From positions 6,861 to 70,860 of the forward strand of contig CAYUGU010000001.1 of assembly GCA_964444345.1 (NCBI GenBank): a DNA stretch of 64,000 bases, given 5' to 3'. A model generated the notes under the pieces. That model was not told the DNA's origin, made no database searches, and saw only the letters and a list, made by a program, of their open reading frames with translations. The position numbers were made by a program, and so were the translations under genes. The stretch is from an uncultured Bacteroides sp. Lineage in GTDB: Bacteria; Bacteroidota; Bacteroidia; Bacteroidales; Muribaculaceae. Below, piece by piece: positions 9,620-53,790 of the stretch; the first letter of the stretch is position 1, and each line of letters begins with the position of its first letter.

Positions 9620-9767
9620 GTAGGGCGGGGGCGATGGGGTTAGGGAGGAGAGGCTCCCGGCTCTCCTCGGGCCTTAGACCCGTTTCAGTCGTCGCGTTTA
9701 CGGCGGCGGGACGCCGCCTTTCCCTTGGTCCCCGTGGCGGCGCTTGGAAATCGCCGCCTCCCTACCT
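9618..9767. terminator. 150-nt GC-rich multi-hairpin element between convergent genes (probable compound bidirectional terminator or REP-like element)
   Basis: Terminal inverted repeat AGGTAGGG (9618-9625) / CCCTACCT (9760-9767). Internal hairpins: GAGGAGAG-N8-CTCTCCTC, GGCGGCG-GGA-CGCCGCC, GGCGGCG-N9-CGCCGCC. A-rich tract on the left (9599-9617), T-rich tract on the right (9768-9799). Confidence 0.5.
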
Positions 9768-9799
9768 TAATTTTGTCTTTTGTATTTTAACTTTTGTAT

Positions 9800-27000: not shown

Positions 27001-29477
27001 AATGTCCGGGCGGACGCGTCCTCCTTTCGATTGAAAACGGCGACCGCGTAATCAAGCGCCTTTGGGCAACTCTTTCCGGCACCGAGGAGACCGGATTCGC
27101 ACTCCCGGTTGACGCAAGTATGGCGCCCAACTTCTACGTAACCGCAACGATGCTCCGGCCTCATAAGGAGACCGACTTCAATACTCCGATTCGCCTCTAC
27201 GGGGTTCGCTCCGTGAAGGTTATCAATCCACGCTCGGTACTCAATCCGCTGATTGAGATGCCTGACGAACTCCACCCGCAGCAGCCCTTTACCGTCCGCG
27301 TCCGCGAAAAAGAGGGTAGGCCGATGACCTACACCCTGGCGATTGTTGACGAGGGACTGCTCGACATTACCAACTTCAAGACCCCCCGCCCGTGGGAGGC
27401 AATGAACCGCAAGGAGGCCCTGAAAGTGCGCACCTGGGATATGTTTGACAACATTATAGGCGCTTTCGGCTCCAACTTCCGCTCAATCCATAGCGTCGGC
27501 GGCGACGAGGCCCTCCGCACGGCCGCCGGCAAGGAGAAGCGATTCAATCCCGCCGTAAAGTTCCTGGGCCCGTTCACGCTTACGGGCGGCGCGCAGTCCC
27601 ATCGCATTACCCTTCCCAACTACGTCGGCTCCGTCCGGGTGATGGTTGTTGCAGCCCATGACGGCAACTACGGAAGCGCCGACAAGACCGTGCCCGTAAC
27701 CTCGCCGTTGATGATGCTCTCAACCTTGCCGCGCGCCCTCGCCAATTGCGATACGGTCGAAATGCCAGTCAACATTTTCGCAATGAAGCCCGAAATCAAG
27801 AACGTCTCGGTCAATATCGACGTGACCGGCCCCGTGAAGGTTCTCGAACCTGAGAGCAAGAGTATTCTCTTTAAAGAAGCGGGAGAGCAACTGACCTCGT
27901 TCCGCCTCGCGTGCGATAAGTCAGTCGAGGGGAAGGCACGCATAATCCTGACGGCCGCGGCCAACGGGCATACCACCCGTGACACTACCTTCATCGAGGT
28001 TTCAAACCCGATGCCGACCCTTTACGAGACCGTCGAGCGGACTCTCGGCGCCAACTCCTCGACCGAGTTCACCCTTCCGAAAGGAGGATCCGAGAGCCTT
28101 TCGCTCCAGGTGGGTGCAATGCCGTCAATGAACTTTAGCGGCGTCGCTTCATTCCTCGAAGGTTATCCTCATTACTGCACGGAGCAACTTTCGTCCAAGG
28201 CGCTCTTTACTCTTTTCGGGCGCAAGTTTCTCGACGACGAAACGCGTGTGCGCCTCGAAGGTCAACTTCCGGCCCTGCTGAAACGGATTCGCGGTCGACA
28301 ATCGGGCAACGGAGGGTTCCGCTATTGGCCCGGAAGCGCTGAGGAAGATGAGTGGGTGACTTCAATGGTCGGAATCGTGCTGACCGAAGCCGCGCGTCAG
28401 GGTTTCCGTGTCGACAAGCAGTGCGTCGACAAGTGGAAGACCTATCAGGAGGCGCGGGCCCGCAACTATCAGTATACTCTCGAATCAGACCTCAATCAGG
28501 CCTTCCGCATCTACTCCCTGACTGTGGCCGGAGCCACCCCGACGGCTGCGATGAACCGCCTGCGCGAGTCGAAACAACTTTCGCAGACCGCCGCCTTTGC
28601 CCTTGCTGCAGCATATGCCGAAGCGGGGCGAAAGGACGTGGCGCTCAAACTGATTGAGCGGGCCAACCGGACCGAGTCTACCCGCTCAAATGATGCTTTT
28701 TACTCGAAGTTACGCAATAAGACCATAGAACTGGAGGCCCTGACTCTCTGCGATTTGCGCCCGGAGGCGTTACGGATGGCCCGCGAGGTCGCCGCCGATT
28801 GCAGTGGAAACTATGTGACTCAGGAGGTTGCCTTCGCAACCGTGGCCTTCAACCGCTTGAGCGCTTTGCTCGGTTCCGGAGCCAACTCTTTGCGCGTAAG
28901 CCCGAAGGGGCAGACGCCTGTCTGCCTCAACGGATTCAGGGACGTGAAGAATATCGCCCTCAATCCTTCAACCGAGAGTCTTAAAGTCGAGAATCTTAAC
29001 CCACGGGGCGCCCTCGAACTGTCGCTGCTTTCGGCGCGTCGCCCGTCTGCCGATGAAACCCTAAAAGCATCGGCCAAGGGCCTGAAATTGACCGTCCGCT
29101 ATACGGACCTGAGCCACAAGCCGATTGCTGTGACTGACCTCAGGCAAGACTCGGAATTCTATGCCGAAGTTACCGTGACCAATCTCGGACGCGACGTGGA
29201 AAATATGGCCCTGACTTACGCCATTCCCGCCGGTTGGGAAATTTGGAACGGACGCCTTTACGGCTCGGCCGGCCCGGACTCGGACAATGAGGATATCCGC
29301 GATACCGCCTGTAACTTCTATTTCCCGCTCAGGCGCGGCGCCTCCAAAACCGTCCGTGTGCGCCTGCGCGCCGCCTATCCCGGCAACTTCATTCTGCCGC
29401 CTACGGTCTGCGAGGATATGTATAACCCCGGCTGTCGCGCCGTGACCGCCAACCGCCGCGTAACCGTCAAGCCATGA
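24006..29477 (+). CDS. Alpha-2-macroglobulin family lipoprotein with intact thioester motif (YfhM/ECAM-like)
   Basis: 1823 aa, lipobox VVSSC, thioester CTEQ in GYPHYCTEQLSSKA, MG-domain-like repeats. The stop overlaps the pbpC start (ATGA at 29474). Confidence 0.9.
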   Translation: MRFSVIAPLKRLGAVWVVAAISAALVVSSCSRRVMADEEAERWVAAYTPAHIDREARIRLELTDLTRSKVDTARSLKGVFSFSPRLKGEAVYSPDRRFIEFIPEEAMEQGRNYKCRVDMRALTEVDSLADFAFDFYVDKREMRFDDVTVTVDPDNVALMTVRGRLVYSVPAGDSITADTTLLRCDYPGVRITMDPKPDKQTRGFRITGIKRGEKETALTLSLNSLAGFAAEDRKITIPAISGFTLLSSERVEAPEPYLNLEFSTPLSSQQELDGLITIDNLPDIKIERSGTNVKVYYPRNGIKNLTLRVSDLLKNNDGRSLDEELVCHFHQEVIPPTIKLPFEGSILPDSRNLKLPFRAVNLAAVDVEVVKIFPSNVISFLQTNDLSETWTLRRYGRLIYHQTVRLDRDKSLNLHQWQDFSIDLKDLFARERGAIYNIRLTFRKAYSLYNRAKPEDFEEIKGITDDDRKTWDKNDPYLFRATPDYCWEKLNWNETDDPTKDSYYMYEYDRMPEVNLVASNIGLIVKRGDDNLLRTIVTDIVEARPLAGVTVTAYDFQMQKVGSARSDENGFADIRADHNPFWVTASDGRSTTYLKVTNYNELSLSNFDVAGKTYNGGIKGFTYGDRGVWRPGDDIHLTLIVEDKQKALPDNHPVVMELYNPAEQIYERQVIEKGVDGFYVCHIPTDESAPTGLWTAKFSIGNQTFYHPVRIETIKPNRLKVNIEAPEVIQGNAKNDFRLDARWLSGPVAKNMRVSVDMNLFTNPNPFEKYKNYTFRNPLVEYTSTESTLFTGQTDSVGHLIRRCAIGADLNSPGMLMANLTAKVTEPGGDASIVSKSVPFSPFGVYVGLDMRKKEFLTDEEIALPVVVVNQKGARMKSRELEYKIYRLDWDWWWEGSADDLSRYVKSTSAEVVASGTLTAENGFATLRFTVQYPEWGRYLILLRDSKGGHATGGILNIDWPNWRGRSNKASASGSTELSFTLDKRQYEVGETAKVYLPKCPGGRVLLSIENGDRVIKRLWATLSGTEETGFALPVDASMAPNFYVTATMLRPHKETDFNTPIRLYGVRSVKVINPRSVLNPLIEMPDELHPQQPFTVRVREKEGRPMTYTLAIVDEGLLDITNFKTPRPWEAMNRKEALKVRTWDMFDNIIGAFGSNFRSIHSVGGDEALRTAAGKEKRFNPAVKFLGPFTLTGGAQSHRITLPNYVGSVRVMVVAAHDGNYGSADKTVPVTSPLMMLSTLPRALANCDTVEMPVNIFAMKPEIKNVSVNIDVTGPVKVLEPESKSILFKEAGEQLTSFRLACDKSVEGKARIILTAAANGHTTRDTTFIEVSNPMPTLYETVERTLGANSSTEFTLPKGGSESLSLQVGAMPSMNFSGVASFLEGYPHYCTEQLSSKALFTLFGRKFLDDETRVRLEGQLPALLKRIRGRQSGNGGFRYWPGSAEEDEWVTSMVGIVLTEAARQGFRVDKQCVDKWKTYQEARARNYQYTLESDLNQAFRIYSLTVAGATPTAAMNRLRESKQLSQTAAFALAAAYAEAGRKDVALKLIERANRTESTRSNDAFYSKLRNKTIELEALTLCDLRPEALRMAREVAADCSGNYVTQEVAFATVAFNRLSALLGSGANSLRVSPKGQTPVCLNGFRDVKNIALNPSTESLKVENLNPRGALELSLLSARRPSADETLKASAKGLKLTVRYTDLSHKPIAVTDLRQDSEFYAEVTVTNLGRDVENMALTYAIPAGWEIWNGRLYGSAGPDSDNEDIRDTACNFYFPLRRGASKTVRVRLRAAYPGNFILPPTVCEDMYNPGCRAVTANRRVTVKP

Positions 29478-31690
29478 AATCGCTCAACCGAAAGACCCTG
29501 ATAGCCTTGTCGGCAGGAGGGATTCTCCTGCTGATATGGCTGTTTTGCCTGCCGTCTGACTTGTTTGGGGGCACACCTTACTCTACCGTAGTGACCGCCA
29601 AGGGTGGCGAACTTCTCGGCGCGCGTGTGGCCGACGACGGGCAGTGGCGTTTCCCTCCCTGCGACTCTATCCCCGAGAAGTTTGCCAAGGCCGTGGTTGA
29701 ATATGAAGACCGCACTTTTTATTCTCATCCCGGCGTGAGTGCCCGCGGCCTTTTTCGCGCCTTTTGGCAGAACGTCACCTGCGGGCGCGTTGTCAGCGGC
29801 GGAAGCACTATTTCCATGCAGACCATCCGACTGCATCGGCGCGGTAGGCGCAACATCGTCGAGAAGGCGATTGAAATGTTTATGGCCACGCGCCTTGAGG
29901 CCCGCTTTTCTAAGGATGAGATTCTACGGATGTATGCCTCTCTTGCGCCCTTCGGCGGCAATGTCGTCGGAATTGACGCCGCCCTTTGGCGCTATCTCGG
30001 CAATAATGGCAGCGAAATGTCGTGGGCCGAGGCCGCAACCCTCGCAGTGCTCCAGAATGCGCCGTCGGCAATTCATCCTTCCAAAAATCGTGACCGACTG
30101 CTCGAAAAGCGTAACCGGCTGCTGCGTCGCCTTTTTGAGAAGGGAGAAATGACTCCCGACGAGTATGAACTCGCCGTGGAGGAGCCCCTGATTGGAACCC
30201 CTTACCGGATGCCTCAACTGGCCCCGCACTATGTAGAACTGATGAACCGCACTCGCCACGGTCAACTCTCGCATACCTCGATTGACTTCGCACTTCAGCA
30301 GCGGGTCGAGGCGCTGACCGCCCGCTGGCGCGAAGACCTTTCTTTCTCCGGAATCAACGACCTCTCGGCCGTGATTGTCGACGTTGCTACGGGACTTCCG
30401 GTTGCCTATTGCGGAAACGCCGATATTAGTGCCGAGCGCGAAGGGCGGTGGGTCGATATTGCCCGCGCGCCCCGCTCGTCGGGGAGCATCCTGAAGCCGC
30501 TGCTCTACTGCGCGGCCCTCAGCGAGGGCGTCATCCTCGAAAATACCCTCCTGCCCGATATTCCTATGGATTTCGGCGGCTTTGTCCCTAAGAATTTCGA
30601 CGGCACTTACTCCGGAGTGGTGGAGGCCAAAACCGCACTGGCGCTTTCGCTGAATATTCCTAACGTCCGGCTGCTCAAGGAGTTCGGAGTTTCCCGCTTT
30701 GCCTCGCTGCTAAAGCGCTGCGGGCTCTCGACGTTGACCAAGCCGTCCGACGTCTACGGCCTTTCTCTGATTCTCGGCGGAGCGGAGGTCACATTGACCG
30801 ACATTGTCTGCTGCTACGCCAACCTTGCGCGCTTCAACCCCGATTTTCCCTTGAACGACAGCGTCGCAATCTACTCGATGCTCGACGCTATGCGCAACGT
30901 GAATCGCCCCGACCAACTCGACTGGAGCCGCGCTTCTTCGGTTCAGAATATCGCGTGGAAGACCGGAACGAGTTATGGCTCACGCGATGCCTGGGCTATC
31001 GGAATCACGCCCCGCTATGTCGTAGGCGTATGGGCCGGAAATGCCGACGGTCGCGGCGTTGCCGACCTGACGGGTGCAAGAACTGCCGGGCCGGTAATGT
31101 TCGATATTTTCAATCTCCTCCCCGCGAGTAAGTGGTTCACGCAACCGGGCGGAACGCCCCTGAAGGTCTGCGTGCGCTCCGGCCAACTTGCCGGCCGACA
31201 TTGCGCCGAAACGCGCCTTGAAGTCGCCCCGCGCAATGCACTGAAGTCGCCCCGATGCAGTTACTGCTCCGAGATTCCCGTCTCGCTCGACGGGTTGCGT
31301 CGCGTTGTCGACGCCTCGGAGCCTGCAATAATGAAATCTTTCTTCCAACTCCCTCCCGTCCATAAACACTACTATAAGCAGACCCATGCCGACTATCTCG
31401 AACCGCCCGCCGACCCCCTCGACAATCCCGCCAACCTCCGCATTATCTATCCGGCCGACGGCGCAGTGATTGCCCTTCCGAGGCGACCCGACGGGACCCA
31501 AGCCGAACTGACCTGCAAAGCCGCCCACTCAAGCCCCGGCGCCCGCCTCTTCTGGCATCTCGACGACCTCTTCATCGCCTCCACCACCGACATACACCAA
31601 ATCAGCATAACCCCCGCCCCCGGCCTCCACACCCTGACCGTCTACGACCAAAACGCCACCCGCCAAACCCTCCGCTTCCAAACAAAATAA
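29474..31690 (+). CDS. pbpC: Penicillin-binding protein 1C
   Basis: 738 aa. Glycosyltransferase motif EDRTFYSHPGV, transpeptidase SxxK (SGSILKP), C-terminal PBP1C-type domain. Coupled to the A2M gene as in E. coli yfhM-pbpC. Confidence 0.9.
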   Translation: MKSLNRKTLIALSAGGILLLIWLFCLPSDLFGGTPYSTVVTAKGGELLGARVADDGQWRFPPCDSIPEKFAKAVVEYEDRTFYSHPGVSARGLFRAFWQNVTCGRVVSGGSTISMQTIRLHRRGRRNIVEKAIEMFMATRLEARFSKDEILRMYASLAPFGGNVVGIDAALWRYLGNNGSEMSWAEAATLAVLQNAPSAIHPSKNRDRLLEKRNRLLRRLFEKGEMTPDEYELAVEEPLIGTPYRMPQLAPHYVELMNRTRHGQLSHTSIDFALQQRVEALTARWREDLSFSGINDLSAVIVDVATGLPVAYCGNADISAEREGRWVDIARAPRSSGSILKPLLYCAALSEGVILENTLLPDIPMDFGGFVPKNFDGTYSGVVEAKTALALSLNIPNVRLLKEFGVSRFASLLKRCGLSTLTKPSDVYGLSLILGGAEVTLTDIVCCYANLARFNPDFPLNDSVAIYSMLDAMRNVNRPDQLDWSRASSVQNIAWKTGTSYGSRDAWAIGITPRYVVGVWAGNADGRGVADLTGARTAGPVMFDIFNLLPASKWFTQPGGTPLKVCVRSGQLAGRHCAETRLEVAPRNALKSPRCSYCSEIPVSLDGLRRVVDASEPAIMKSFFQLPPVHKHYYKQTHADYLEPPADPLDNPANLRIIYPADGAVIALPRRPDGTQAELTCKAAHSSPGARLFWHLDDLFIASTTDIHQISITPAPGLHTLTVYDQNATRQTLRFQTK

Positions 31691-42272: not shown

Positions 42273-43667
42273 TTAGAACGATTGGCGGGAGAAGGTCAGT
42301 TTGATTTTGGCTTTGGCCGGGAGGAGTTCAACCATTGCCGGCATGGCAATCATCGGGGTGATTCCGCTGAGGGTTGTCTGGGTCGTAGCGTAATAATAGG
42401 ACGATGCGGCGGCCTCGGTAACCATCGAGACGGGAGTCAGCGTGAACGTGAAGTCATCGGCGGTCAGGGGCTCCTCTTTGTCGAGCATCTTGAGCAGATA
42501 TTCGCGCATATCGCCGAAACTGTACGTCTTGGTTGTTGAATTGTAGGTCCCGACAAAAGAAGTGACGTTGTCCGGAAGTTTGTTTTTGGCAAAGAACTCA
42601 TCTTTCTCCTTGCTGAGGACCATCAGTAGATATTCCGGCGGGTTGATTCCCTTGTCGGAGGCTATGGTTGCAGCCGGAAGCGAGAATGTCAAGGTATTGA
42701 TGACGGTCAGGGCGTTGCTCTCGGCGGAGTTGATTTTATTGATAATCGACTCGATGGGGAAATTGAGGGTGACATCATAGCCGGCCGGAGCGGCAACGAT
42801 TGACTTCCCGGCCGTGGCCATAGCCGTCAATTCGGGCGAAACCTGATAGTCGATGCAGGTGTTGCTGACGAGTTCGGGGGCCATTGCCATCACGTAGTTG
42901 TAGAGTTTCGAGATTGAGTCCGTTTCCTGGCCTTTATCGTCCGTAACCTTGAAGGTCTTATGATAGTAGAAGACCATACGGCAGTTGCTTATGCGGGTGA
43001 CGCGACCCGAGCCGAACGAATGATGAACATAAACGCCAGGAAAGAAGTCCTGAAACGCGTAAGGATTGTTGAAAATCGAGGGGTCCGACTTATATTTTGC
43101 GAGGATTTCATCCATCAGTTTGTCGGGCATATTGACATAGGCAAATCGGTAGGGATTGGCCGCTACGGTGTCGTTGACGCTGAGGCCAACGGCCGTGAAG
43201 GCTCCGGAGCCGAGGCGGGCAGAAGGATCGTAGGCCTGCAGGGCCGTCGGGTCATAGTCTGAATAGATAGGGGAGGGGAGTTGCTTGGTCAGGGGGTAAA
43301 CTTCCACTCCGACCGGCGCGAGCGAGTCGCCTACAAAAGCGTTCTTTTCGAAAACGAGTTGAAGTTTGAGCGAGTCGGGGGTGATACCCTCGGTTTCGAT
43401 TGAGTTCGAGGGAAACATCTGGGCGACGAAGTCGGCGCGCAGCGTGCCGAACTCTTTGGCGTGGATTGCGCCGAGAAGTTGAGTGGTTGTGCGGCTCTGG
43501 ATTGCACCGGAAACAACGGAAGCGGTGCTGACCGTGAACGAAGAGTCAACAACGACTTCGATATTATTGCCCACGAGGGCCGAACCGGGCTCGGTCAGCG
43601 AGACGTTTTCGCTTTCGCAGCCACAGAGGGCCAGCGAGATAAGAGCCGGGAGGATGAATTTTTTCAT
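42273..43667 (-). CDS. DUF4270-like lipoprotein
   Basis: 464 aa, lipobox LALCGC. Its position directly after the short glycogen-synthase-like gene is a conserved Bacteroidetes arrangement as I recall it. Confidence 0.6.
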   Translation of the reverse strand: MKKFILPALISLALCGCESENVSLTEPGSALVGNNIEVVVDSSFTVSTASVVSGAIQSRTTTQLLGAIHAKEFGTLRADFVAQMFPSNSIETEGITPDSLKLQLVFEKNAFVGDSLAPVGVEVYPLTKQLPSPIYSDYDPTALQAYDPSARLGSGAFTAVGLSVNDTVAANPYRFAYVNMPDKLMDEILAKYKSDPSIFNNPYAFQDFFPGVYVHHSFGSGRVTRISNCRMVFYYHKTFKVTDDKGQETDSISKLYNYVMAMAPELVSNTCIDYQVSPELTAMATAGKSIVAAPAGYDVTLNFPIESIINKINSAESNALTVINTLTFSLPAATIASDKGINPPEYLLMVLSKEKDEFFAKNKLPDNVTSFVGTYNSTTKTYSFGDMREYLLKMLDKEEPLTADDFTFTLTPVSMVTEAAASSYYYATTQTTLSGITPMIAMPAMVELLPAKAKIKLTFSRQSF

Positions 43668-44500
43668 TTTGCGGGGTTGAGCAGTTTGGCGTAAAATTCG
43701 GCATAGGCCGGGGCCGAAGTATCGATAGGGCCGGGGTAGGCAAGGAAGGGCTTGCCGGAGGCCCGGGCATACTCGATGAGTTCGGGGTCAATGTTTTCCG
43801 ACCCTTGGATGATAGCGTCGGCAAAGTCTATGGCGAGTTTGTTGAGTGCCTTATGGTTGATGTCGGTATTTTTGAGCGAGCCGAGATGGCGGGCATTGAT
43901 TCCGTCGGTTTTAAGTTTCTTGACCAGGTCAGGGTTCAGGTCGGCGGGCAATGTGTCGGCATCGTCAAAGAGCGTATAAATGATGATGGCCTTCTTGTAG
44001 ATAGGCTCATCGTTATAGACCCTCTTGAGGTAGATAGGCGTAAGGGCCGTAACCCAGCCAGTACATTGAATGATTACCGGGTCCCAGCGGAGTTTCTTGA
44101 CCGTTTCGGCAACGCCGCGCACAAAGAAAATCGAGCGGGCGTCGTTCTGTTCGGCGTCGGTCATCGTCTCAAGCAGTTTGTCTGTCGAGGGGTGGCGGTC
44201 AAAATAGTCATCATTGTCAATGAAATAAACCTGCGAGCGCGACGACTGCAGCGTAGCCACCTTGATTACGAGAGGGTGGTCCGTATCGTCGATAATAAGG
44301 TTCATGCCCGAAAGGCGAATCACCTCGTGGAGTTGATTGCGACGCTCGTTGATACATCCGTATTTGGGCGTAAAGAGTCTTACCTCATAACCGCTCTCCT
44401 GGATTTTGCGCGGAAGGTGGTTACAATATTCCGACAAGGGAGTCGACGGCAGGTAAGGCATAATCTCCTGCGAAACGAAAAGTACTTTCTGTTGGCTCAT
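43664..44500 (-). CDS. Glycogen/starch synthase-like protein (short, Glyco_transf_5 domain only)
   Basis: 278 aa. KVLFVSQEIMPYLPSTPLSEY...GYEVRLFTPKYGCINERRNQLHEV. The stop overlaps the DUF4270 start (4 nt). Confidence 0.75.
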   Translation of the reverse strand: MSQQKVLFVSQEIMPYLPSTPLSEYCNHLPRKIQESGYEVRLFTPKYGCINERRNQLHEVIRLSGMNLIIDDTDHPLVIKVATLQSSRSQVYFIDNDDYFDRHPSTDKLLETMTDAEQNDARSIFFVRGVAETVKKLRWDPVIIQCTGWVTALTPIYLKRVYNDEPIYKKAIIIYTLFDDADTLPADLNPDLVKKLKTDGINARHLGSLKNTDINHKALNKLAIDFADAIIQGSENIDPELIEYARASGKPFLAYPGPIDTSAPAYAEFYAKLLNPAK

Positions 44501-44535: not shown

Positions 44536-44620
44536 CGAAAAAATTTTGAAATAAACCAAATTCCCTCCCGATTTGTTATTAAGGTATAAAAAACGTTTAA
44601 CTATTAAATCATCTAAAACT

Positions 44621-45172
44621 ATGAACGAAACAAAATCTTTTTGGGGCACATCCAAGTTGTGGTGGCTCGCCCTTACAGTCGGAATTCTTATGGTAATTGC
44701 CGGATTCGCCTACTGGTTTTTCCCCTCGATTGGCTATGCAGTGGCTTCCGTGCTCTTCGGCTGGATGCTGATTGCCGCAGGCCTTGTGCAGATTTGTGTC
44801 AGCGCCGGCGCTAACCGCCCTAAAGGCTGGGGCTGGTGGTTGACCGGAGGCGTAATTGATATGTTTATCGGCTTTATGCTGGTTCGCAGCGTAACCTTGG
44901 CCGAAGCCGTTTTCCCCTATTTTATTGCCTTTGTATTCGTATTCTGGGGCTTTGGTGCCTTGATCAGCGCTATCCAGGATCGCGGTCGCCGCTACTGGTG
45001 GGTGCAGTTGATTAACGGTATCCTTCTGCTTATCATCGGATTCTTCTTCCTCGAAGCCGGTTATCTCCAGAATATGCTGAACGTAAGTTTCCTGACTTCA
45101 CTGGCCTTCATCTATTGGGGCTTCTCGATTGCCATGGGCTCTTACGACCTCAAACCCTCTAAACAGGAATAA
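44621..45172 (+). CDS. HdeD/DUF308 family membrane protein
   Basis: About 183 aa with six hydrophobic helices and the repeated GxxxIxxG pattern typical of DUF308. The track start at 44573 is TTG; ATG 44621 chosen. Confidence 0.72.
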   Translation: MNETKSFWGTSKLWWLALTVGILMVIAGFAYWFFPSIGYAVASVLFGWMLIAAGLVQICVSAGANRPKGWGWWLTGGVIDMFIGFMLVRSVTLAEAVFPYFIAFVFVFWGFGALISAIQDRGRRYWWVQLINGILLLIIGFFFLEAGYLQNMLNVSFLTSLAFIYWGFSIAMGSYDLKPSKQE

Positions 45173-45206
45173 TTGAAACATTATCAATAACTCTCTTAAC
45201 TGAACA

Positions 45207-45246
45207 ACGGACGCGAAAATCAGCGGTTTTCGCGCCCGTTTTGACA
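45207..45246 (+). terminator. Rho-independent terminator
   Basis: ACGGACGCGAAAA-tcagcgg-TTTTCGCGCCCGT followed by a TTTTGACAGTTTTTT tract. Confidence 0.6.
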
Positions 45247-45286: not shown

Positions 45287-45294
45287 TAATTTTG
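45287..45294 (+). promoter_or_regulatory. -7 box TAATTTTG for the Trp/Gly-rich protein + barrel unit
   Basis: Matches TAnnTTTG, with TTG 19 nt upstream (GCTTGAAA). The ATG at 45387 leaves a ~90-nt leader. Confidence 0.4.
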
Positions 45295-45386: not shown

Positions 45387-46883
45387 ATGAAAGTTACTAA
45401 CAAAATGAGATTAGCGCTTGCCGGCGCAGCCATGGCGTTGCTTCCCGTCAGTGTTATGGCCCAGGGCTTCTATGACGACGATATCTATTTTGACGCATCG
45501 AAGTCAAAAGCCAAAAAGACACAGACCAAGACAACTCCGACTCGGTCGACCTCTTCGTCAGCCTCTACCACCGTGGTAACCAACGGCGGTAATACGGTTA
45601 TCAGCGTCCCCGCTTCGGCCCTCTCGAAAGTGACTGCCTCCACTTCGTCCGCTGCAACCGCTTCGCGCCCATCCACGCGCGACGTCGACGAATATAATCG
45701 CCGCGGCTCCTACAAGCCCGTCGAAACTCAGTCGGTTGACGATCTGGGCGAGAACTTCGAATATACCCGCAGAATCGAGCGTTTCTATAATCAGGATATC
45801 GTAAACTCATCTGACGATGATGACCTTATCTATTATTACAATAACGCCAACGACGAACTCGCCGACGTGACCGGTACGGCTCCTACTACTATCAACATCT
45901 ATGTTGACAATCCCGACCCCTGGGATGGCTTCTGGAACCCTTACTACTACAGTTCGGCCTGGAGTTGGGCCTGGCGTCCTACCTACTATAATCCCTGGTA
46001 CTCATGGAACTATGCCTGGGGCTACGGTCCCTCCTGGAGCCTGAGTTGGGGTTGGGGAGGTCCCTCCTTCTCCTGGGGTTGGAGTTGGGGCTGGGGTTGG
46101 AACTATCCCTCCTACGGCTGGGGCTGGAATCCCGGCTGGGGTTGGAATCATCCCGGACACGGTTGGGGTCATCATCATCCCAACTATCCCGGCAACTGGG
46201 CTTGGAATCATCCCCGTCCCGCCGGTCCCGGAGCCTCGCGTCCCTCGGCTCGCCCCGGACAGCACACTCCCGTCTATGGCAACCGTCCTGCTTCAAACCG
46301 TCCTGCTTCAAACCGTCCTTCCCAGAACGGAATCCTGAGTCGACATAATTCGGCCCGCGGCGGACGCGTTCCCTCCTCCGGTAACTCAACCGCCCGTCCC
46401 GGCACGAGTGCCCGTCCCGGCTCAATCGGCGCCTCAACTACCGCATCGTCCACATCCTCGTCGACTTCCGGACTTCGCTCCTCGTCGGCTCGCGGAGGCT
46501 ACGTGCCCGGTGAACAGACCCGCCTCGGCAATATCTCGACTTCAACGTCGACCTCGACCGGACGTGCAACCTCTGTCAATCGCGGCTCCTCTTCGACCTC
46601 CTCTTCGTCAAGCGCCGTTCGCGGTTCAAGCAGCACCTCCTCCGGCCGCTCCTCGTCGGCAACTCGCTCATCCTCCTCTTCGACCTCAAACCGCAGTTAC
46701 GGTTCCGGCTCCTCTTCGTCCTCTTCGCGCAGCAGTTACGGCTCCGGTTCGTCTTCTTCTTCGCGCAGCAGTTACGGCTCCGGTTCCTCCTCTTCCGGCC
46801 GCAGTTATGGCGGCGGTGGCGGCTCCTATAGCGGCGGCGGTCGCTCAGGTGGCGGCGGTGGCGGTCGCGGCGGACGCCATTAA
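45387..46883 (+). CDS. Secreted low-complexity protein: Trp/Gly-repeat core plus Ser/Thr/Arg/Gly/Tyr tail
   Basis: 498 aa, signal peptide ...LLPVSVMAQ. Core ~110 aa dominated by W,G,N,P,S,Y,H (SWGWSWGWGWNYPSYGWGWNPGWGWNHPGHGWGHHH). Tail with SSYGSGSSSS repeats, ending GGGGGRGGRH. Strong third-position bias supports this frame over the alternative-frame ORFs. Confidence 0.7.
   Translation: MKVTNKMRLALAGAAMALLPVSVMAQGFYDDDIYFDASKSKAKKTQTKTTPTRSTSSSASTTVVTNGGNTVISVPASALSKVTASTSSAATASRPSTRDVDEYNRRGSYKPVETQSVDDLGENFEYTRRIERFYNQDIVNSSDDDDLIYYYNNANDELADVTGTAPTTINIYVDNPDPWDGFWNPYYYSSAWSWAWRPTYYNPWYSWNYAWGYGPSWSLSWGWGGPSFSWGWSWGWGWNYPSYGWGWNPGWGWNHPGHGWGHHHPNYPGNWAWNHPRPAGPGASRPSARPGQHTPVYGNRPASNRPASNRPSQNGILSRHNSARGGRVPSSGNSTARPGTSARPGSIGASTTASSTSSSTSGLRSSSARGGYVPGEQTRLGNISTSTSTSTGRATSVNRGSSSTSSSSSAVRGSSSTSSGRSSSATRSSSSSTSNRSYGSGSSSSSSRSSYGSGSSSSSRSSYGSGSSSSGRSYGGGGGSYSGGGRSGGGGGGRGGRH
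46281..46322 (+). repeat. 15-nt in-frame tandem repeat (AACCGTCCTGCTTCA x2.7; NRPAS)
   Basis: Direct reading. Lies inside the low-complexity gene. Confidence 0.8.
46692..46817 (+). repeat. 36-nt in-frame tandem repeat x3.5 (R-S-(S)-Y-G-S-G-S-S-S-S-S)
   Basis: Units begin at 46692, 46728, 46764 and 46800 (partial), each starting CGCAG(CAG)TTACGG. Confidence 0.8.
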
Positions 46884-46920
46884 ACCTAAGTCAAGTTTAA
46901 AACTTACCCCCCTCACGTAA

Positions 46921-48552
46921 ATGAAAAAAATTCTGATATTTTCCGCTTCCGTTGCCTCGGCTCTGGGTCTTTCGGCCCAGAGCGCAATGGACGCCTTTAC
47001 GGCCTCTGAATCGCAACTGCGTGGAACGGCCCGATATGTTTCTATGGGCGGCGCCTTCGGTGCCCTCGGTGCTGACCTTTCGACCCTCAACCAGAATCCG
47101 GCCGGCCTTGGCGTTTACCGCAGCAGCGAGTTCGGCGCTACTCTCGATATTGACTTCCTCAATGCTTCGATGAGCAATACCGGGTCGAATCCGATGAAAA
47201 ACAGCGCTACCCGCGCCGCATGCAATAACTTCGGCTACGCTGGCTCAATGAAGACAGGCTCCTCCCTGATGCCATACTTCTCCTGGGGCGCTACCTATAA
47301 CCGCCTGAACTCCTTCGAGCGCAAATATCGCGGTTATTTCCCGACGCTTCCCTCTTCGTGGACCAACTATGTCGCCTCCTTCTCGGGCGGCTTCTCAGGC
47401 CAGGAAATGTGGGGCGACGAAAACTATGACCCCTTCTTCCAGAGCAACATTCCCTGGATTTCGCTGCTGGCCTACAATAACTTCCTCATCAACCTCTACG
47501 GCAACGGTTATGCCGGCCTGATGCAACCGGGCTCCTACGGCGACGCTTCGATTGAGGTTCATGAGCAAGGCTATATCGACGAATACTCCATCAACTTCGG
47601 CGGCAACTTCTCCGATATGTTCTATTGGGGTATCGGTTTCGGTATTCGCGACCTGAACTATCGCCTGTCAAGTTATTATGACGAGATGATCGATAATGCA
47701 CTCGTCCCGAAGAATGCCGACTCTGACGCCCTCACTACCGGCAATGCCGAATGGGGCATCGAAAATCTCCAGCAGGTCAGCGGCACCGGATTTAACGTGA
47801 AACTCGGCCTTATCTTCAAACCTATCAACGAGTTCCGCCTTGGTCTTGCCGTTCATACTCCTACTTGGTATAACCTCAGTTACAGCACTAACGCCTGGGT
47901 TGATTACCACCTTGGCAAACTTGAGAACGACGGCTATTATACCCTTGACTCTCGGGTTGATGACAATCCCTATACCACTACTAACGCCGGCTATTGGGAT
48001 ATGAAACTCAAGTCGCCTTGGCGCCTGATGGTCAGCGCAGCCGGTGTGCTCGGCGGTCGCTTCATCATCTCCGCCGATTATGTCTACGAAGCCTATCCCT
48101 CAATGGCGTTCTCCGACGGCGACGGAACTCTGACCGACATCTCCAACGATATCAAGCAGTATTATCAGCCCTCCAACGAACTCCGCCTCGGCGCCGAGTT
48201 CCGCCTCTCGCCCAAATGGAGCGTTCGCGCAGGCTATAACTTCAAGAGCACTGCCGCTAAGTCCGAGGCTCGCGAAGGCCGCGAATATATCTATACGACC
48301 GGCACGCAGGCTATGTCTGAATTCAAGGGCGACCGAAACAATGTCTCCGTAGGTCTCGGCTATCGCACCGGTGGCTTCTATATCGACGCTGCCTATGTCC
48401 ACTCCTCGCAGCGAAGCGACTGGCATGCTTTCAGTGCCTTCCCCTCGGCCGACGGCAATTATGCCCTCGCCTCCAACGCCGAGTTCGCCCCCCACGGAAC
48501 GATTACCACCAACCATAACAACCTTGTCCTCTCCGTAGGCTTCAAGTTCTAA
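46921..48552 (+). CDS. Outer-membrane beta-barrel protein, FadL/OmpP1-like (family uncertain)
   Basis: 543 aa. Signal peptide, N-terminal GTARYVSMGGAFGALGADLSTLNQNPAGLG motif, alternating beta pattern, C-terminal ...LVLSVGFKF with terminal Phe. Confidence 0.72.
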   Translation: MKKILIFSASVASALGLSAQSAMDAFTASESQLRGTARYVSMGGAFGALGADLSTLNQNPAGLGVYRSSEFGATLDIDFLNASMSNTGSNPMKNSATRAACNNFGYAGSMKTGSSLMPYFSWGATYNRLNSFERKYRGYFPTLPSSWTNYVASFSGGFSGQEMWGDENYDPFFQSNIPWISLLAYNNFLINLYGNGYAGLMQPGSYGDASIEVHEQGYIDEYSINFGGNFSDMFYWGIGFGIRDLNYRLSSYYDEMIDNALVPKNADSDALTTGNAEWGIENLQQVSGTGFNVKLGLIFKPINEFRLGLAVHTPTWYNLSYSTNAWVDYHLGKLENDGYYTLDSRVDDNPYTTTNAGYWDMKLKSPWRLMVSAAGVLGGRFIISADYVYEAYPSMAFSDGDGTLTDISNDIKQYYQPSNELRLGAEFRLSPKWSVRAGYNFKSTAAKSEAREGREYIYTTGTQAMSEFKGDRNNVSVGLGYRTGGFYIDAAYVHSSQRSDWHAFSAFPSADGNYALASNAEFAPHGTITTNHNNLVLSVGFKF

Positions 48553-48567
48553 ACCGAAATCAACAAT

Positions 48568-48608
48568 GGAGGCGTCGCTCATCGGGCGGCGCCTCCTTAT
48601 CTTTTCCT
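48568..48608 (+). terminator. Rho-independent terminator
   Basis: GGAGGCG-N15-CGCCTCC followed by TTATCTTTTCCTT. Confidence 0.6.
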
Positions 48609-50285: not shown

Positions 50286-52688
50286 ATGAAATTGAGAAAC
50301 ATAGTTCTATCCCTCCTGACGGTTTGCTCATTGTCGGCGATGGCAATGACGGACAAGGAGGTTATAGATTTTATCAAACAGCAGACCGCTGCAGGAAAGA
50401 CCGAGCAGCAGATTGGTAAAGAACTCATGGCCCGAGGAGTGACTCCCGAGCAGGCCAAGCGAATCAAGATGCAATATAAGGAGCGCACGGGCGAGGACGA
50501 TAACGCCGTCACTATGCCTGCCGCTACCCCGCGCCGAAGCCATACGGTCCTGACCGACGCCGGCGAGACAATCATCGTGGCCGAAGAAGCCCCGACCCCG
50601 GCCCTCGAAGAGTCCGAGGCCCGCAAGATTTACGGCCATAACGTCTTCAACTCCAGTTCGCTGACATTCGAGCCGAGCGAGAATCTTGCAACTCCCCAGA
50701 ACTATCGTCTCGGGCCCGGCGACGAAGTGGTTATCGACATTTGGGGCGCCTCCGAAGACCATATCCGCCAGGTAATCTCCCCCGAAGGTAGCATCATGAT
50801 TTCCCAACTCGGCCCCGTTTACCTTAACGGCCTTACAATCAACGATGCAGCGAAACATATTCGCAAATCCTTCTCCCAGAAATACGCCGGAGTGAGCGAC
50901 TCCGAGACCGACATTCAGGTTACTCTCGGCCAGGTCCGCACCATTCAGGTTAACCTGATGGGCGAGGTCGCAACCCCCGGAACTTATATGCTGTCGCCCT
51001 TCTCCACGGTTTTCCATGCCCTATATCGCGCCGGCGGCATCAATGACATCGGCTCTATGCGTAACCTTCAGGTGCTTCGCAACGGCCGCAAAGTTGCCGG
51101 AATCGACATCTATGAGTATCTCTTTGAGGGAAAAACCAACGGCAATATACGTCTTGAAGAAGGCGACGTGATTATCGTTCCCCCCTATGGTACTTTGGTG
51201 AACGTCGAGGGCAATGTCCGCCGCCCGATGTACTACGAGATGAAGCCGGGCGAAACCGTCAAGGACGTGATTAAGTATGCCGGCGGATTCACTTCCGAGG
51301 CCTACGCCGATATGATTTCCCTCTCGCGCCAGTCGGGCACCGAAAACGAACTCGTCAACATATCGCAGAGCGAGTTCCCCACCTATACTCTTAAGGATGG
51401 CGACGTCCTGACCGTCGGAACCATTCTCAACCGCGTTGCCAATAAGGTTGAACTGAGAGGCTCCGTTTTCCGCCCCGGCCTTTATGCAATTGACAATCAG
51501 GTATCAACCGTTGGCCAACTAATCAAAAAGGGTGCGGGCCTTACGGAAGACGCCTACACCGGCCGCGCCCTCCTTTATCGCGAGGGCGACGATTTGCGCC
51601 CACAGGTGATTCCCGTCAATCTTGACGCCTTGTTGGCCGGAAAGATTGCCGATATTCCCTTGAAGCGCAACGATGTCCTGATAGTTTCCTCGGTCGATGC
51701 CGTCTCTCAACAGGGCGATATCTCAATCCGCGGCCTTGTGGCTAACCAGGGCGTTTACCCTTACGCAAGCGGAATGACGCTCGAAGACCTTATTTTGAGC
51801 GCCGGCGGCCTCCTCGAAGGCGCCTCGACGGCCCGTGTCGACGTGGCCCGACGAATCGTTGACCCGACGGCCGTAAAGCAGACCCAGCAACTCTCGCAGG
51901 TCTTCTCTATCTCGATTGAAAACGGCCTGACCTTAGGCTCCGGAGCCGGATTCCTCCTCCAGCCGTTCGACGAAGTGGTTGTCCGTTCAAGCCCCGGCTA
52001 TGAGCCTCAGCGTTTTGTAAAAATCAATGGCGAAGTGCTTTTCGACGGCGAATACGTAATTCAGAAACGCAATGAGCGCATCAGCGAAGTGATTGCCCGC
52101 GCCGGCGGTATCCTTGAGGGGGCTTACATCCGCGGCGCCCATATGACCCGCCTCCTTTCCGACGACGAACTCGCCGCCAAGCAGGAAGCCGTGCGTCTTG
52201 CCCGTGCCAACAGTCAGATGTCTATGGGCGACTCGATTGCCCTCGACCAGATTCAGATTTCTAAAACCTACAATGTAGGTATCAACCTTGAGAAAGCGTT
52301 GGCCAATCCCGGCAGTTCTTTCGACATTGTCCTCCAGCCCGGCGACGAAATCTTCATCCCTCAGGAGCAAAGCATCGTGAAGATTGCCGGCGACGTTATG
52401 TTCCCCAACGCCGTTGTCTACGAGCCGGGCAAAAAACTCTCCTACTATATCGACCAGGCCGGAGGCTACGGCCAGCGCGCACGCAAAGGCAAAGCCTTCA
52501 TTGTCTATCAGAACGGAACGGTTGCCCGCGCCAAGCGCAACTCCGTCATAGAACCCGGCTGCCAGATTATCGTCCCCTCCAAGCCTCAAAGCGCCGGAAC
52601 GGACTGGACAAAGGTCTTGAGTATGGTGACGAGTTTCTCCTCTGTAGCAACTATGGCGGCTACAATTACTAACCTCTTTAGACGTTAA
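50286..52688 (+). CDS. Polysaccharide export protein, Wza-like with multiple SLBB domains
   Basis: 800 aa. Signal peptide, Poly_export motif (YRLGPGDEVVIDIWG), several repeats of the SLBB pattern (L.DGDV..V; R.GD..IVP), C-terminal TM helix. Confidence 0.85.
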   Translation: MKLRNIVLSLLTVCSLSAMAMTDKEVIDFIKQQTAAGKTEQQIGKELMARGVTPEQAKRIKMQYKERTGEDDNAVTMPAATPRRSHTVLTDAGETIIVAEEAPTPALEESEARKIYGHNVFNSSSLTFEPSENLATPQNYRLGPGDEVVIDIWGASEDHIRQVISPEGSIMISQLGPVYLNGLTINDAAKHIRKSFSQKYAGVSDSETDIQVTLGQVRTIQVNLMGEVATPGTYMLSPFSTVFHALYRAGGINDIGSMRNLQVLRNGRKVAGIDIYEYLFEGKTNGNIRLEEGDVIIVPPYGTLVNVEGNVRRPMYYEMKPGETVKDVIKYAGGFTSEAYADMISLSRQSGTENELVNISQSEFPTYTLKDGDVLTVGTILNRVANKVELRGSVFRPGLYAIDNQVSTVGQLIKKGAGLTEDAYTGRALLYREGDDLRPQVIPVNLDALLAGKIADIPLKRNDVLIVSSVDAVSQQGDISIRGLVANQGVYPYASGMTLEDLILSAGGLLEGASTARVDVARRIVDPTAVKQTQQLSQVFSISIENGLTLGSGAGFLLQPFDEVVVRSSPGYEPQRFVKINGEVLFDGEYVIQKRNERISEVIARAGGILEGAYIRGAHMTRLLSDDELAAKQEAVRLARANSQMSMGDSIALDQIQISKTYNVGINLEKALANPGSSFDIVLQPGDEIFIPQEQSIVKIAGDVMFPNAVVYEPGKKLSYYIDQAGGYGQRARKGKAFIVYQNGTVARAKRNSVIEPGCQIIVPSKPQSAGTDWTKVLSMVTSFSSVATMAATITNLFRR

Positions 52689-52692
52689 TCCC

Positions 52693-53790
52693 ATGGCTGA
52701 GAATCATGAACCTGTTTTGACCCAAGACGACGATCAGGAAATTGACCTGCTCGAATTGGCCTCTAAATTATGGGAGAAGCGCCGCCGACTCCTCTATTGG
52801 GGCTTCATCGGCGCCGTTGTTGGCCTCGTGATTGCCTTCAGTATTCCGCCCGAATATTCCGCGTCGGCCAAACTGGCCCCCGAGGTCGATGAAGGCGGCG
52901 GTCGCACCGGCGGCCTCAGCGTTCTTGCCTCCATGGCCGGAATTGGCGCCGGAACCCCCGGCTCCGATGCCGTCTACCCGATGCTTTACCCCGATATTGT
53001 GTCGTCCGTGCCGTTCATCACCGGACTTTTCGACGTTGAAGTCGAGACCGAAGAGGGGCAGAAGATGCCGCTCAAACAGTATATGACCGACGACATTTCT
53101 TCGCCCTGGTGGAGCAAGATTTTCGCCCTTCCCCGCAAGTTGATTGCGGCATTGTCGCCGTCTGATGCTGTCGATGAGGGTCATATGATCGACAATTTCC
53201 GCCTCACCAAGCAGGAGGCCCAATTGGTCGCTCTTATCTCCGCCCGCGTCTCGGCCGCCGTCGACTCCAAAACCTCGTTGGTCGAAATCGACGTCAAGAT
53301 GCAGGACCCGCTCGTGGCCGCCATGCTGACTGATACGGTGGTCAGCCGCCTGCAGAGTTATATAACCGACTATCGAACCAACAAGGCGCGCAAAGACCTC
53401 GAATATGCCGAGGAAATCAACGCCGAAGCCCGTCAGGAATATTATCGCGCGCAGCAAAAACTCGCCGACTATAGCGACCGCAACCAAGGCCTCGCAACCC
53501 AGTCGGCACGAATTGCCCGCGACCGTCTCGAAAACGAGGCCCAACTTGCCTTCACGCTCTATAATCAGACCGCTCAACATGTTCAGCGCGCAAAGGCCGT
53601 GGTCCAGGAGCATACTCCCGTTTATGTAGTCGTGGTGCCCGCAACCGTGCCCAACTTCCCCGAGAGTCCCCGCAAGGCGATGATTACCATTGGCTGTGCC
53701 TTCGTTGCCGTCGTGGGCTATGCGCTCTGGCTGCTCTTCCTCCAGCCCCTGATTCAGTCACGCAAAGAGGAAAAGAAGCCCGAAGAATGA
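52693..53790 (+). CDS. Chain-length determinant (Wzz-type) protein
   Basis: 365 aa. N-terminal TM plus Wzz motif region (IDLLELASKLWEKRRRLLYWGFIGAVVGLVIAF), coiled-coil middle, C-terminal TM. Confidence 0.8.
   Translation: MAENHEPVLTQDDDQEIDLLELASKLWEKRRRLLYWGFIGAVVGLVIAFSIPPEYSASAKLAPEVDEGGGRTGGLSVLASMAGIGAGTPGSDAVYPMLYPDIVSSVPFITGLFDVEVETEEGQKMPLKQYMTDDISSPWWSKIFALPRKLIAALSPSDAVDEGHMIDNFRLTKQEAQLVALISARVSAAVDSKTSLVEIDVKMQDPLVAAMLTDTVVSRLQSYITDYRTNKARKDLEYAEEINAEARQEYYRAQQKLADYSDRNQGLATQSARIARDRLENEAQLAFTLYNQTAQHVQRAKAVVQEHTPVYVVVVPATVPNFPESPRKAMITIGCAFVAVVGYALWLLFLQPLIQSRKEEKKPEE

Follow-up and report, generated by a model that had tools for sequence, protein, structure and literature searches.

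What might a secreted tryptophan- and glycine-rich protein of low complexity do when it is encoded directly upstream of an outer-membrane barrel? The question is raised by a two-gene locus in a 64,000-nucleotide stretch of DNA, hereafter the window, from an uncultured Bacteroides sp. assigned to the Muribaculaceae (GenBank assembly GCA_964444345.1, contig CAYUGU010000001.1, positions 6,861 to 70,860 of the forward strand). Gene A (45387–46883, + strand) encodes a protein of 498 amino acids (aa) and gene B (46921–48552, + strand) one of 543 aa ending in ...VGFKF; a check of the open reading frames (ORFs) reproduced exactly the two lengths and the 37-nucleotide (nt) interval reported in an earlier sequence-only reading of the window. 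A–B is the Muribaculaceae version of a two-gene module found across gut Bacteroidales (Bacteroides, Phocaeicola and Muribaculaceae). The barrel family already has one studied member, the BSAP-1 receptor and gut-colonisation factor of Bacteroides fragilis, and the statement of the sequence-only reading that neither gene had a described function therefore stands for A and falls for B, whose ortholog, assigned below as BF9343_1563, is this receptor (PMC4999547, PMC12853789). Bacteroidales dominate the mammalian gut, and in B. fragilis the barrel of this module governs both colonisation and killing by BSAP-1. The partner family, its near-universal pairing with the barrel, the anatomy of the partner and its likeness to the receptor-binding peptide of BSAP-1 are undescribed in the literature searched: literature searches on FadL-like barrels and disordered or Trp-rich partner proteins in Bacteroides returned no paper on the partner, the sequence features of the partner and a natural ligand appear in neither of the two papers on the BSAP-1 receptor (PMC4999547, PMC12853789), and the second of these is silent on the upstream gene and on mimicry (PMC12853789).

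Conservation of the gene pair

One genome per GTDB species was scanned with an alignment of the barrel, giving 80 loci, all of the Muribaculaceae type, to which five further loci were added from protein look-ups. An automatic synteny score, based on BLAST detection of a W-rich ORF on the same strand whose end lies less than 400 nt 5' of the barrel, placed the partner next to the barrel in 76 of 83 loci. The seven loci failing this score comprised four contig ends, two ORF-calling artefacts with the partner present and one true absence (L056); after inspection, the pairing holds in 78 of the 79 informative Muribaculaceae loci. The two genes are co-oriented and 8–156 nt apart (median spacer in relatives, 61 nt), and the partner is 321–482 aa long in relatives. 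Among the distant representatives sampled, the pair is also present in the Bacteroides-type lineages L086/L087 and L090 and at an unplaced Bacteroidales locus (L088), and it recurs in the Bacteroides-type loci L091–L099. The synteny check suggested by the sequence-only reading thus finds the pair kept in the Muribaculaceae and in three other Bacteroidales lineages.

At E<=1e-3, the barrel family numbers 5918 cluster representatives. With a profile built from partners outside the Muribaculaceae, 869 proteins were retrieved, including entries named 'hypothetical protein' from B. fragilis, B. heparinolyticus and Phocaeicola; 239 of the 240 profile matches listed carry no Pfam domain, and one has a stray PF07683. 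An apparent 762-aa fusion of partner and barrel with a 250-aa N-terminal extension (P0368) proved to be an out-of-frame read-through of an upstream low-complexity gene, and is a gene-calling artefact.

Relationship to the BSAP-1 receptor locus of B. fragilis

B aligns with a 556-aa barrel of B. fragilis at 31% identity and 49% positives over 543/556 aa (E 3e-64). In B. fragilis, this barrel gene and that of a 439-aa partner lie between prmA and a dCMP-deaminase gene. The published quantitative PCR primers for BF9343_1564 (PMC11208268) map inside the deaminase gene next downstream, with the 126-bp amplicon stated, and the barrel, at 556 aa and 62.0 kDa, equals the Q5LEV6/BF9343_1563 entry in Table S2 of PMC12853789. 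The locus of another allele of the partner (P0497) encodes a 527-aa form of the barrel (61% identical) and, after it, a 372-aa MACPF protein, which has SSKGG at residues 335–339 and ends in RSTYRRP, exactly as described for BSAP-1. On the strength of the primer mapping, the matching length and mass and the MACPF neighbour with BSAP-1 features, sequence comparison identifies the B. fragilis ortholog of B as BF9343_1563, that is, OmpS or B1R-S, the receptor of BSAP-1. By the same comparison, the ortholog of A is the upstream gene, BF9343_1562, the equivalents of which are HMPREF1080_01555 and BF638R_1644.

Gene order and spacing at the BSAP-1 receptor locus are as in the window, and BF638R_1644/1645 are the resistant alleles (PMC4999547, PMC12853789). 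The BF9343_1562-type partner shares with A an N-terminal DDxxY, DVDEYNRR, Y-x-x-R-I-x-R-F-x-N-P, an aromatic-glycine block, a His run and an Arg-rich tail, which in B. fragilis ends in RR. A differs from the B. fragilis partner in its GPSWGW-type aromatic units and in a tail richer in RP motifs; the window locus belongs to the Muribaculaceae, is deeply diverged and has no MACPF toxin gene nearby. The B. fragilis barrel is surface-exposed, and its deletion causes no growth defect in vitro and a strong colonisation defect in gnotobiotic mice; the upstream partner gene alone confers no sensitivity to BSAP-1, and toxin-sensitive and producer strains differ over a region that covers the genes for toxin and barrel and extends into the 3' part of the partner gene (PMC4999547). 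BSAP-1 binds through an unstructured C-terminal domain of 38 aa with six Arg, one Lys and no acidic residues, its binding site is a negatively charged groove of the extracellular domain of the barrel, and its terminal heptapeptide matters for activity (PMC12853789). Binding is allele-specific even within B. fragilis, and is therefore not expected for B.

Two candidates were set aside during this comparison. BT_0315/0316 was wrong as the B. thetaiotaomicron pair, BT_0316 having been reported as a hemin receptor, and an ORF lying between the barrel and deaminase genes in some B. fragilis strains is not BSAP-1, as it has no MACPF domain, SSKGG or Arg-rich end; the BSAP-1 allele itself was located by way of the R-type partner. 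In strains with the S-type barrel (L095, at 9368–10867, and also L096 and L097), the slot of BSAP-1 holds a 499-aa ORF with no Pfam match and no signal-peptide-like start, split in two in L096. Database copies of the B. fragilis partner are often marked 'partial', at about 200–220 aa; the assemblies break where the repetitive tail begins, so the partner family is systematically truncated in public annotation.

Anatomy of the partner and selection on gene A

The four parts recognised in A by the sequence-only reading (a signal peptide, an acidic head, a Trp/Gly block and a tail of S, T, R and G) are all real (Table 1). At the predicted cleavage site, A25 and Q26 are nearly invariant among 111 homologs; Gln at +1 fits the 'Q-rule' of Bacteroidetes. 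The motif of the mature N-terminus always follows this site directly, with D31, D32 and Y34 invariant and I33 and K39 nearly so, and is found in Bacteroides-type partners too. The acidic head carries FYDDDIYFD, DVDEYNRRG and EYTRRIERFYNQD; D101, Y103, N104, R105 and T127 are invariant among the 111 homologs, and VNIYV is a strand-like element and a conserved short motif.

The aromatic-glycine block (W block) was put at about 110 aa by the sequence-only reading; the segment stands at 97 aa. In A, it is made of W, G, Y, P, S, N and H, and family-wide it contains 25% W, 17% G, 14% Y and 13% P. Its repeat unit is clade-specific, being GPSWGW in Muribaculaceae and GGYW in Bacteroides, and this conservation of composition despite different repeat units speaks for a region of stickers and spacers and against a fixed fold. 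The tail, with its SSYGSGSSSS repeats and GGGGGRGGRH end, likewise stands, at 223 aa in place of the approximately 230 aa first given. It has 26 basic residues, one acidic residue and no Cys, and the SSYGSGSSSS repeats are encoded by DNA tandem repeats of 33–36 nt. Tails across the family are rich in G, S, R and N, are about 1% acidic and have a median net charge of +19. Eight RP motifs lie in the tail of A (residues 277–343), and the whole protein has ten RP and one PR. Relative to expectation, RP is raised 5.4-fold in Muribaculaceae tails and 2.4-fold in Bacteroides tails, and PR is depleted (0.12-fold and 0.24-fold, respectively). The C-terminal ends of 76 partner ORFs are RR in 46, RH in 17, HR in nine, GR in three and PC, an ORF-call artefact, in one.

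In the predicted structure of A, the mean predicted local distance difference test score (pLDDT) is 49.9, and the chain is disordered except for the signal peptide and one helix (residues 136–162), the sole confident helix of the mature chain, with pLDDT 84–88 at residues ~140–160; no beta strands are predicted in this model. Scans of A and six orthologs against Pfam and NCBIfam gave no match, even at E up to 1. A is thus predicted to be a Sec-exported, nearly wholly disordered protein rich in aromatic residues and glycine.

Selection on A was assessed by comparison with the partners of two relatives (L004 and L084), whose barrels are 76–79% identical to B. Synonymous sites are saturated, with a proportion of synonymous differences (pS) of 0.63–0.96. 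The proportion of nonsynonymous differences (pN) is 0.06–0.10 in the head and W block, with a pS of ~0.8–0.96 in the head, and 0.28–0.33 in the tail; dN/dS is ~0.04 in the head and W block where it could be computed. Every length difference is of whole codons, and the C-terminus GGRSGGG..GGRGGRH is retained. Gene A is under strong purifying selection at the protein level, and the low pN at saturated pS, the in-frame indels and the retained C-terminus rule out a decaying or untranslated ORF. The case of a strain-specific sequence decaying through frameshifts in relatives, about which the sequence-only reading had cautioned, is not what was found, and its view of A as an exported, probably disordered, aromatic and glycine-rich polypeptide is borne out by the signal peptide, the low pLDDT and the purifying selection.

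Gene B as a FadL-fold barrel

B is confidently modelled as a FadL-fold outer-membrane barrel. It matches Pfam Toluene_X (PF03349) with 37.5 bits against a cut-off of 29.7 (E 1.3e-9), and many of its homologs are annotated with this family. The AlphaFold2 (AF2) model has a pLDDT of 91.3 and a predicted TM-score of 0.86, and its DSSP string gives 14 long strands after a helical N-terminal segment (residues 20–69), with long extracellular loops and periplasmic turns of 2–7 residues. A Foldseek search with the model returned FadL, TodX, TbuX and BamG (E 4e-18 to 7e-12), the top 27 matches all being FadL-family chains and including NPA mutants of FadL. The FadL-like barrel with a terminal Phe in the sequence-only reading is upheld by these results, and the modelling of strand number and plug that it proposed gives 14 strands and an N-terminal hatch. 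In the hatch, N59 and P60 of the NPA motif are invariant and A61 nearly so among 82 sequences; this motif is the hallmark of transport-competent FadL. Conservation of B peaks in the hatch, the NPA motif and the lumen residues, and GTARYVSMGGAFGALGADLSTLNQNPAGLG is the most conserved part of the protein. A break in the DSSP string of the model at residues 313–315, inside a conserved HTPTWY, is only suggestive of a lateral opening. The regions of B assigned as extracellular have a net charge of −16, and such regions are net acidic in 80 of 80 barrels (−6 to −38), all partner tails being basic, with a median of +17.5 in this comparison; the values are net charges of the regions so assigned.

B shares with the FadL/TodX/TbuX channels (PF03349) the 14-strand barrel, the N-terminal hatch and the NPA motif, and differs from them in being ~120 residues longer, in its large acidic extracellular loops and in having a dedicated protein partner. 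The likeness in sequence is marginal (PDB profile E 2e-3): searches of the PDB with B as a single sequence and as a profile gave only marginal matches to TbuX, FadL and TodX. With BamG–BamH, B shares the FadL fold (TM-score 0.65 to BtBamG), and a BamH-like gene lies 1.7 kb upstream in the window; B has 543 aa, however, against ~400 aa for BamG, and BamH is a DUF4270 surface lipoprotein whereas A is a disordered non-lipoprotein. Searches of the PDB, where 9hiv, 9hjm and 9n2d are deposited, with phmmer and with a profile matched B to no BamG chain at E up to 10, and B was rejected as a BamG, the likeness being at the level of the fold only. An operon of the BamG2/BamH2 type was rejected as well, the BamH-like gene being found in the flanks of five of 92 loci, at varying positions, and on the opposite strand in the window. 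PorV and PorQ are FadL-like barrels that bind proteins at the surface, and B gives a weak match to NCBIfam PorV_fam; it was rejected as either, with 28.5 bits for PorV_fam, 15.7 for T9SS_OM_PorV and 16.2 for T9SS_PorQ against cut-offs of 90, 250 and 220. No type IX C-terminal sorting domain was matched by Pfam or NCBIfam in A or six orthologs and, to our knowledge, B. fragilis, a host of orthologs of the pair, has no type IX system.

The receptor-binding tail of BSAP-1 and the partner tail

The C-terminal domain of BSAP-1, SSKGGAVRNNSRGHNTSSYGNSTRVIGANGNRSTYRRP, aligns with residues 272–330 of the S-type partner (GAVRSNS...TSSY...TRVVG...RRSTYTRP). The alignment scores 65 locally, shuffled sequences 44.6 +/- 5.4 (z 3.8), and five of 2000 shuffles reach that score; no signal was obtained for the same domain against the tail of the R-type partner (z 0.8). 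The terminal heptapeptide, RSTYRRP, is identical at six of seven positions to a conserved island of the tail, RSTYTRP, a match equalled by 89 of 20000 shuffled tails. The S and R alleles of the partner show three differences in their first ~241 residues, and 52% identity from the first tail residue onward: the allele swap exchanges the barrel and the tail of the partner, and leaves the head and W block of the partner unaffected (see also PMC4999547). These comparisons suggest, as a new inference, that the receptor-binding tail of BSAP-1 resembles the tails of A-type partners.

Proposed role of the pair

It is possible, and is our tentative preference, that the disordered partner is docked on the barrel or displayed by it at the cell surface; the suggestion of the sequence-only reading that the barrel is a channel or anchor for A is kept in this form, as the most economical one. 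In favour of it we count the conserved pairing, the selection on A at the protein level, its disorder with short invariant motifs, the FadL fold of B, the orthology to the BSAP-1 receptor locus, the opposite charges of extracellular regions and tails, the likeness of the BSAP-1 domain to the S-type tail, the enrichment of RP beside the depletion of PR and the joint allele swap of barrel and tail. There are precedents for such a role: Bacteroidota reuse FadL-fold barrels as protein-docking platforms, as seen in BamG, a FadL-fold barrel that docks BamH in the β-barrel assembly machinery (BAM) complex (PMC12578637, PMC12611786), and in PorV, for which binding and shuttling of the substrates of type IX secretion have been proposed (PMC12578637). 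A would be the barrel's own client, with its conserved N-terminal and head motifs docking on or in the barrel. Its cationic tail would be shown at the surface, where the RP-type motifs may fill the acidic groove or reach other anionic surface polymers, and the barrel could anchor a 'fuzzy' coat, polycationic and aromatic, and act as its port, instead of or besides being a small-molecule channel. BSAP-1 would exploit the groove by imitating the tail of the partner. The threading of RcsF through OmpA, OmpC or OmpF provides a precedent for a disordered segment crossing a barrel and for a Sec-exported protein being partly exposed at the surface, and, as a matter of speculation, the chain of A might likewise be threaded during barrel assembly; RcsF is, however, a lipoprotein that uses general porins and has no homology to A, for which threading is purely hypothetical.

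Several observations weigh against docking and display at the surface. OmpS alone in heterologous hosts still binds BSAP-1, and published pull-downs, limited to a band of ~60 kDa, report no partner (PMC4999547, PMC12853789). A has neither a lipobox nor a lipoprotein export signal, nor a C-terminal domain for type IX secretion, and its default location is therefore the periplasm. In B, the FadL hatch is complete and the NPA motif is kept, as is typical of transporters of small molecules, the charges of extracellular crown and partner tail covary in the expected direction without reaching significance (Spearman −0.18, p 0.11), and L089, a remote environmental barrel homolog, has no partner. The BSAP-1 domain and the tail are both of low complexity, and the score of the B. 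fragilis tail against that domain is equalled by two Muribaculaceae tails, so the likeness would be to a family-wide tail 'grammar'.

The larger proposal, that the pair is a new kind of outer-membrane organelle, with a barrel that holds and perhaps threads the partner, the RP tail as the natural ligand of the groove, a polycationic aromatic coat needed in the gut and mimicry of the tail by BSAP-1, is on the doubtful side; such mimicry would explain the joint replacement of the barrel and the partner tail in resistant B. fragilis. The pair would add to the bacterial cell envelope an example of a function borne by a conserved, disordered, sticker-rich protein, and a selected disordered partner beside a barrel, a module present in three groups and a toxin peptide resembling the partner tail offer new starting points.

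Alternatively, A may act in the periplasm, where its conserved head motifs would bind the hatch or periplasmic face of B; it would gate or serve FadL-type uptake of a hydrophobic compound, or be an envelope tether whose cationic tail binds peptidoglycan or phospholipid. This would agree with a signal for Sec and signal peptidase I and no known surface-export signal in A, with the concentration of conserved residues of B in the hatch, NPA motif and lumen, as in true FadL transporters, and with the recurrent association of the pair with a gene for an inner-membrane DUF308/HdeD-like protein. The short periplasmic turns of B nevertheless offer little surface, and the acidic crown, the likeness of the toxin tail and the joint exchange of tail and barrel between B. 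fragilis alleles would be left unexplained; a periplasmic role is judged unlikely.

Secretion of the curli or Fap kind, in which B would release A and A would assemble outside the cell as fibres, gel or condensate through aromatic 'stickers' and Arg-aromatic contacts, is less likely still. With its disorder, its lack of Cys and its few hydrophobic residues, A is translocation-competent; its conserved mature N-terminal motif recalls the N-terminal targeting segment of CsgA, its composition is akin to the aromatic and RGG grammar of FUS-type proteins, and the gene order is substrate followed by barrel. Against this, B is a plugged 14-strand FadL fold, unlike the nonamer of CsgG or the trimer of FapF, its library matches being FadL and, weakly, PorV; we know of no FadL-family protein that translocates a polypeptide. 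A has neither amyloid-type imperfect repeats nor predicted beta structure, the repeat unit of its W block is not conserved between clades, and no chaperone, nucleator or accessory genes (of the CsgB/E/F or FapA/B/D/E type) occur at the loci. The likeness to curli (CsgA/CsgG) and Fap (FapC/FapF) drawn in the sequence-only reading accordingly survives only as a loose concept, that of a low-complexity exported polypeptide encoded beside an outer-membrane barrel, with no relation in sequence or fold.

It is improbable that the genes are independent neighbours, B being a FadL-type transporter of hydrophobic nutrients and A an unrelated envelope protein on a shared promoter. In published work, OmpS acts as a toxin receptor even when its cognate partner is missing, and no BSAP-1 phenotype was seen with the partner alone (PMC4999547), but adjacency, order and strand are kept while the barrels are only 31% identical and the other neighbours change, and such conservation is rare without functional coupling. 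That A is a low-complexity, decaying or mis-called ORF, as the likewise open alternative frames over its repeat region and the many partial database entries of the family might suggest, counts as refuted by a dN far below dS, in-frame indels, a conserved extreme C-terminus and at least 869 and at least 923 homologs found with the architecture of A, the partial entries being assemblies broken inside repeats.

Transcription unit and neighbouring genes

The features of the locus are collected in Table 1. A–B is an isolated bicistronic operon, as indicated by the −7 box, the flanking hairpins and the unstructured spacer, and the DUF308 gene is a separate transcription unit in the window, since a hairpin and a promoter box lie between it and A. 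The −7 consensus of Bacteroidetes is TAnnTTTG, with which TAATTTTG agrees as read from the sequence. The upstream terminator, promoter box and downstream terminator of the sequence-only reading were all recovered; the upstream hairpin was missed by a simple terminator scan and was detected by its folding energy relative to shuffled sequences.

Table 1. Positions in the window of the sequence features of the A–B locus, with related partner tail peptides
Feature	Position	Strand	Basis or detail
Gene for DUF308/HdeD-like inner-membrane protein	44573..45172	+	Pfam DUF308 1e-14
Hairpin followed by U-runs, likely terminator of the DUF308 gene	45206..45240	+	−20.5 kcal/mol, z −2.8 vs shuffles
TAATTTTG, −7 promoter box	45287..45294	+	93 nt 5' of the A start codon; function predicted from sequence
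A, signal peptide, residues 1–25, signal peptidase I site VMA/QG (slash, cleavage)	45387..45461	+	predicted helix 5–22
A, mature N-terminal motif Q-x-[FY][FY]DDDIY[FY]-x-x-SK, then Lys-rich stretch	45462..45521	+	conservation
A, conserved acidic head: DVDEYNRRG, (D/E)FxYTRRIERFYNPxIV, helix 136–162, P-x-(V/I)NIYV	45672..45920	+	conservation, pLDDT
A, aromatic-glycine block, residues ~179–275 (97 aa), His/Pro patch at its end	45921..46211	+	composition, pLDDT <50
A, polycationic tail (G/S/R/N/T), residues 276–498 (223 aa), end GGGGGRGGRH and stop	46212..46883	+	pLDDT <50
A–B spacer, 37 nt, without terminator	46884..46920	+	fold −1.1 kcal/mol, z 0.2
B, signal peptide (1–19, LSA/QS) and N-terminal hatch (20–69), NPA motif	46921..47127	+	conservation, helical in model
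B, 14-strand FadL-fold barrel, long net-acidic extracellular loops, terminal Phe	47128..48552	+	Pfam, AF2, Foldseek
Intrinsic terminator closing the A–B operon	48568..48596	+	13-bp stem, 10 GC pairs, T-run; −26.1 kcal/mol, z −6.5
Partner tail peptide sequences			GAVRSNS...RVIG; RRSTYTRPSSTR

The neighbours of the pair are variable apart from the DUF308/HdeD-like gene, which is the immediate 5' neighbour, in the same orientation, in 37 loci and, in L090 (Bacteroidaceae), lies 3' of the pair (6939–7541); no conserved third gene is found at the pair except for this occasional one. The DUF308/HdeD-like gene is thus a recurrent neighbour and a possible functional associate of the pair. Its adjacency in two arrangements hints at a functional link, which, given the His patch in A, may concern pH or envelope stress. 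Toxin-antitoxin pairs of the HepT/MNT type (NTP_transf_2 and HepT-like) adjoin the barrel gene in L001 (7718–8360), L086 (8275–8959) and L087 (3882–4566), an adjacency in Muribaculaceae and Bacteroides lineages that is probably a coincidence.

Upstream in the window (42273–44500, − strand), a gene for a DUF4270/BamH-like lipoprotein, which matches NCBIfam BamH_bt with E 1.5e-36 but stays under the cut-off, shares 4 nt with that of a 278-aa protein with only the N-terminal domain of starch synthase (Glyco_transf_5); these two genes are also found together 5' of the A–B pair in the closest relatives (L004, L005 and L084) and nowhere else. Downstream (50286–53790), genes for a Wza-like polysaccharide export protein (Poly_export and SLBB repeats, 800 aa) and a Wzz-like chain-length determinant form the start of a capsule or exopolysaccharide locus 3' of the A–B pair, and L090, too, has a Poly_export gene near the pair. 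The window further contains two large genes for bacterial alpha-2-macroglobulins of 1675 and 1823 aa (4592–9619 and 24006–31690), the second directly 5' of a gene for a PBP1C-type penicillin-binding protein (Transgly, Transpeptidase and BiPBP_C), in the classical pairing of alpha-2-macroglobulin with PbpC. A gene for a 740-aa patatin-like phospholipase (15187–17409, − strand) has a counterpart near the pair in the close relative L084 (455–2677).

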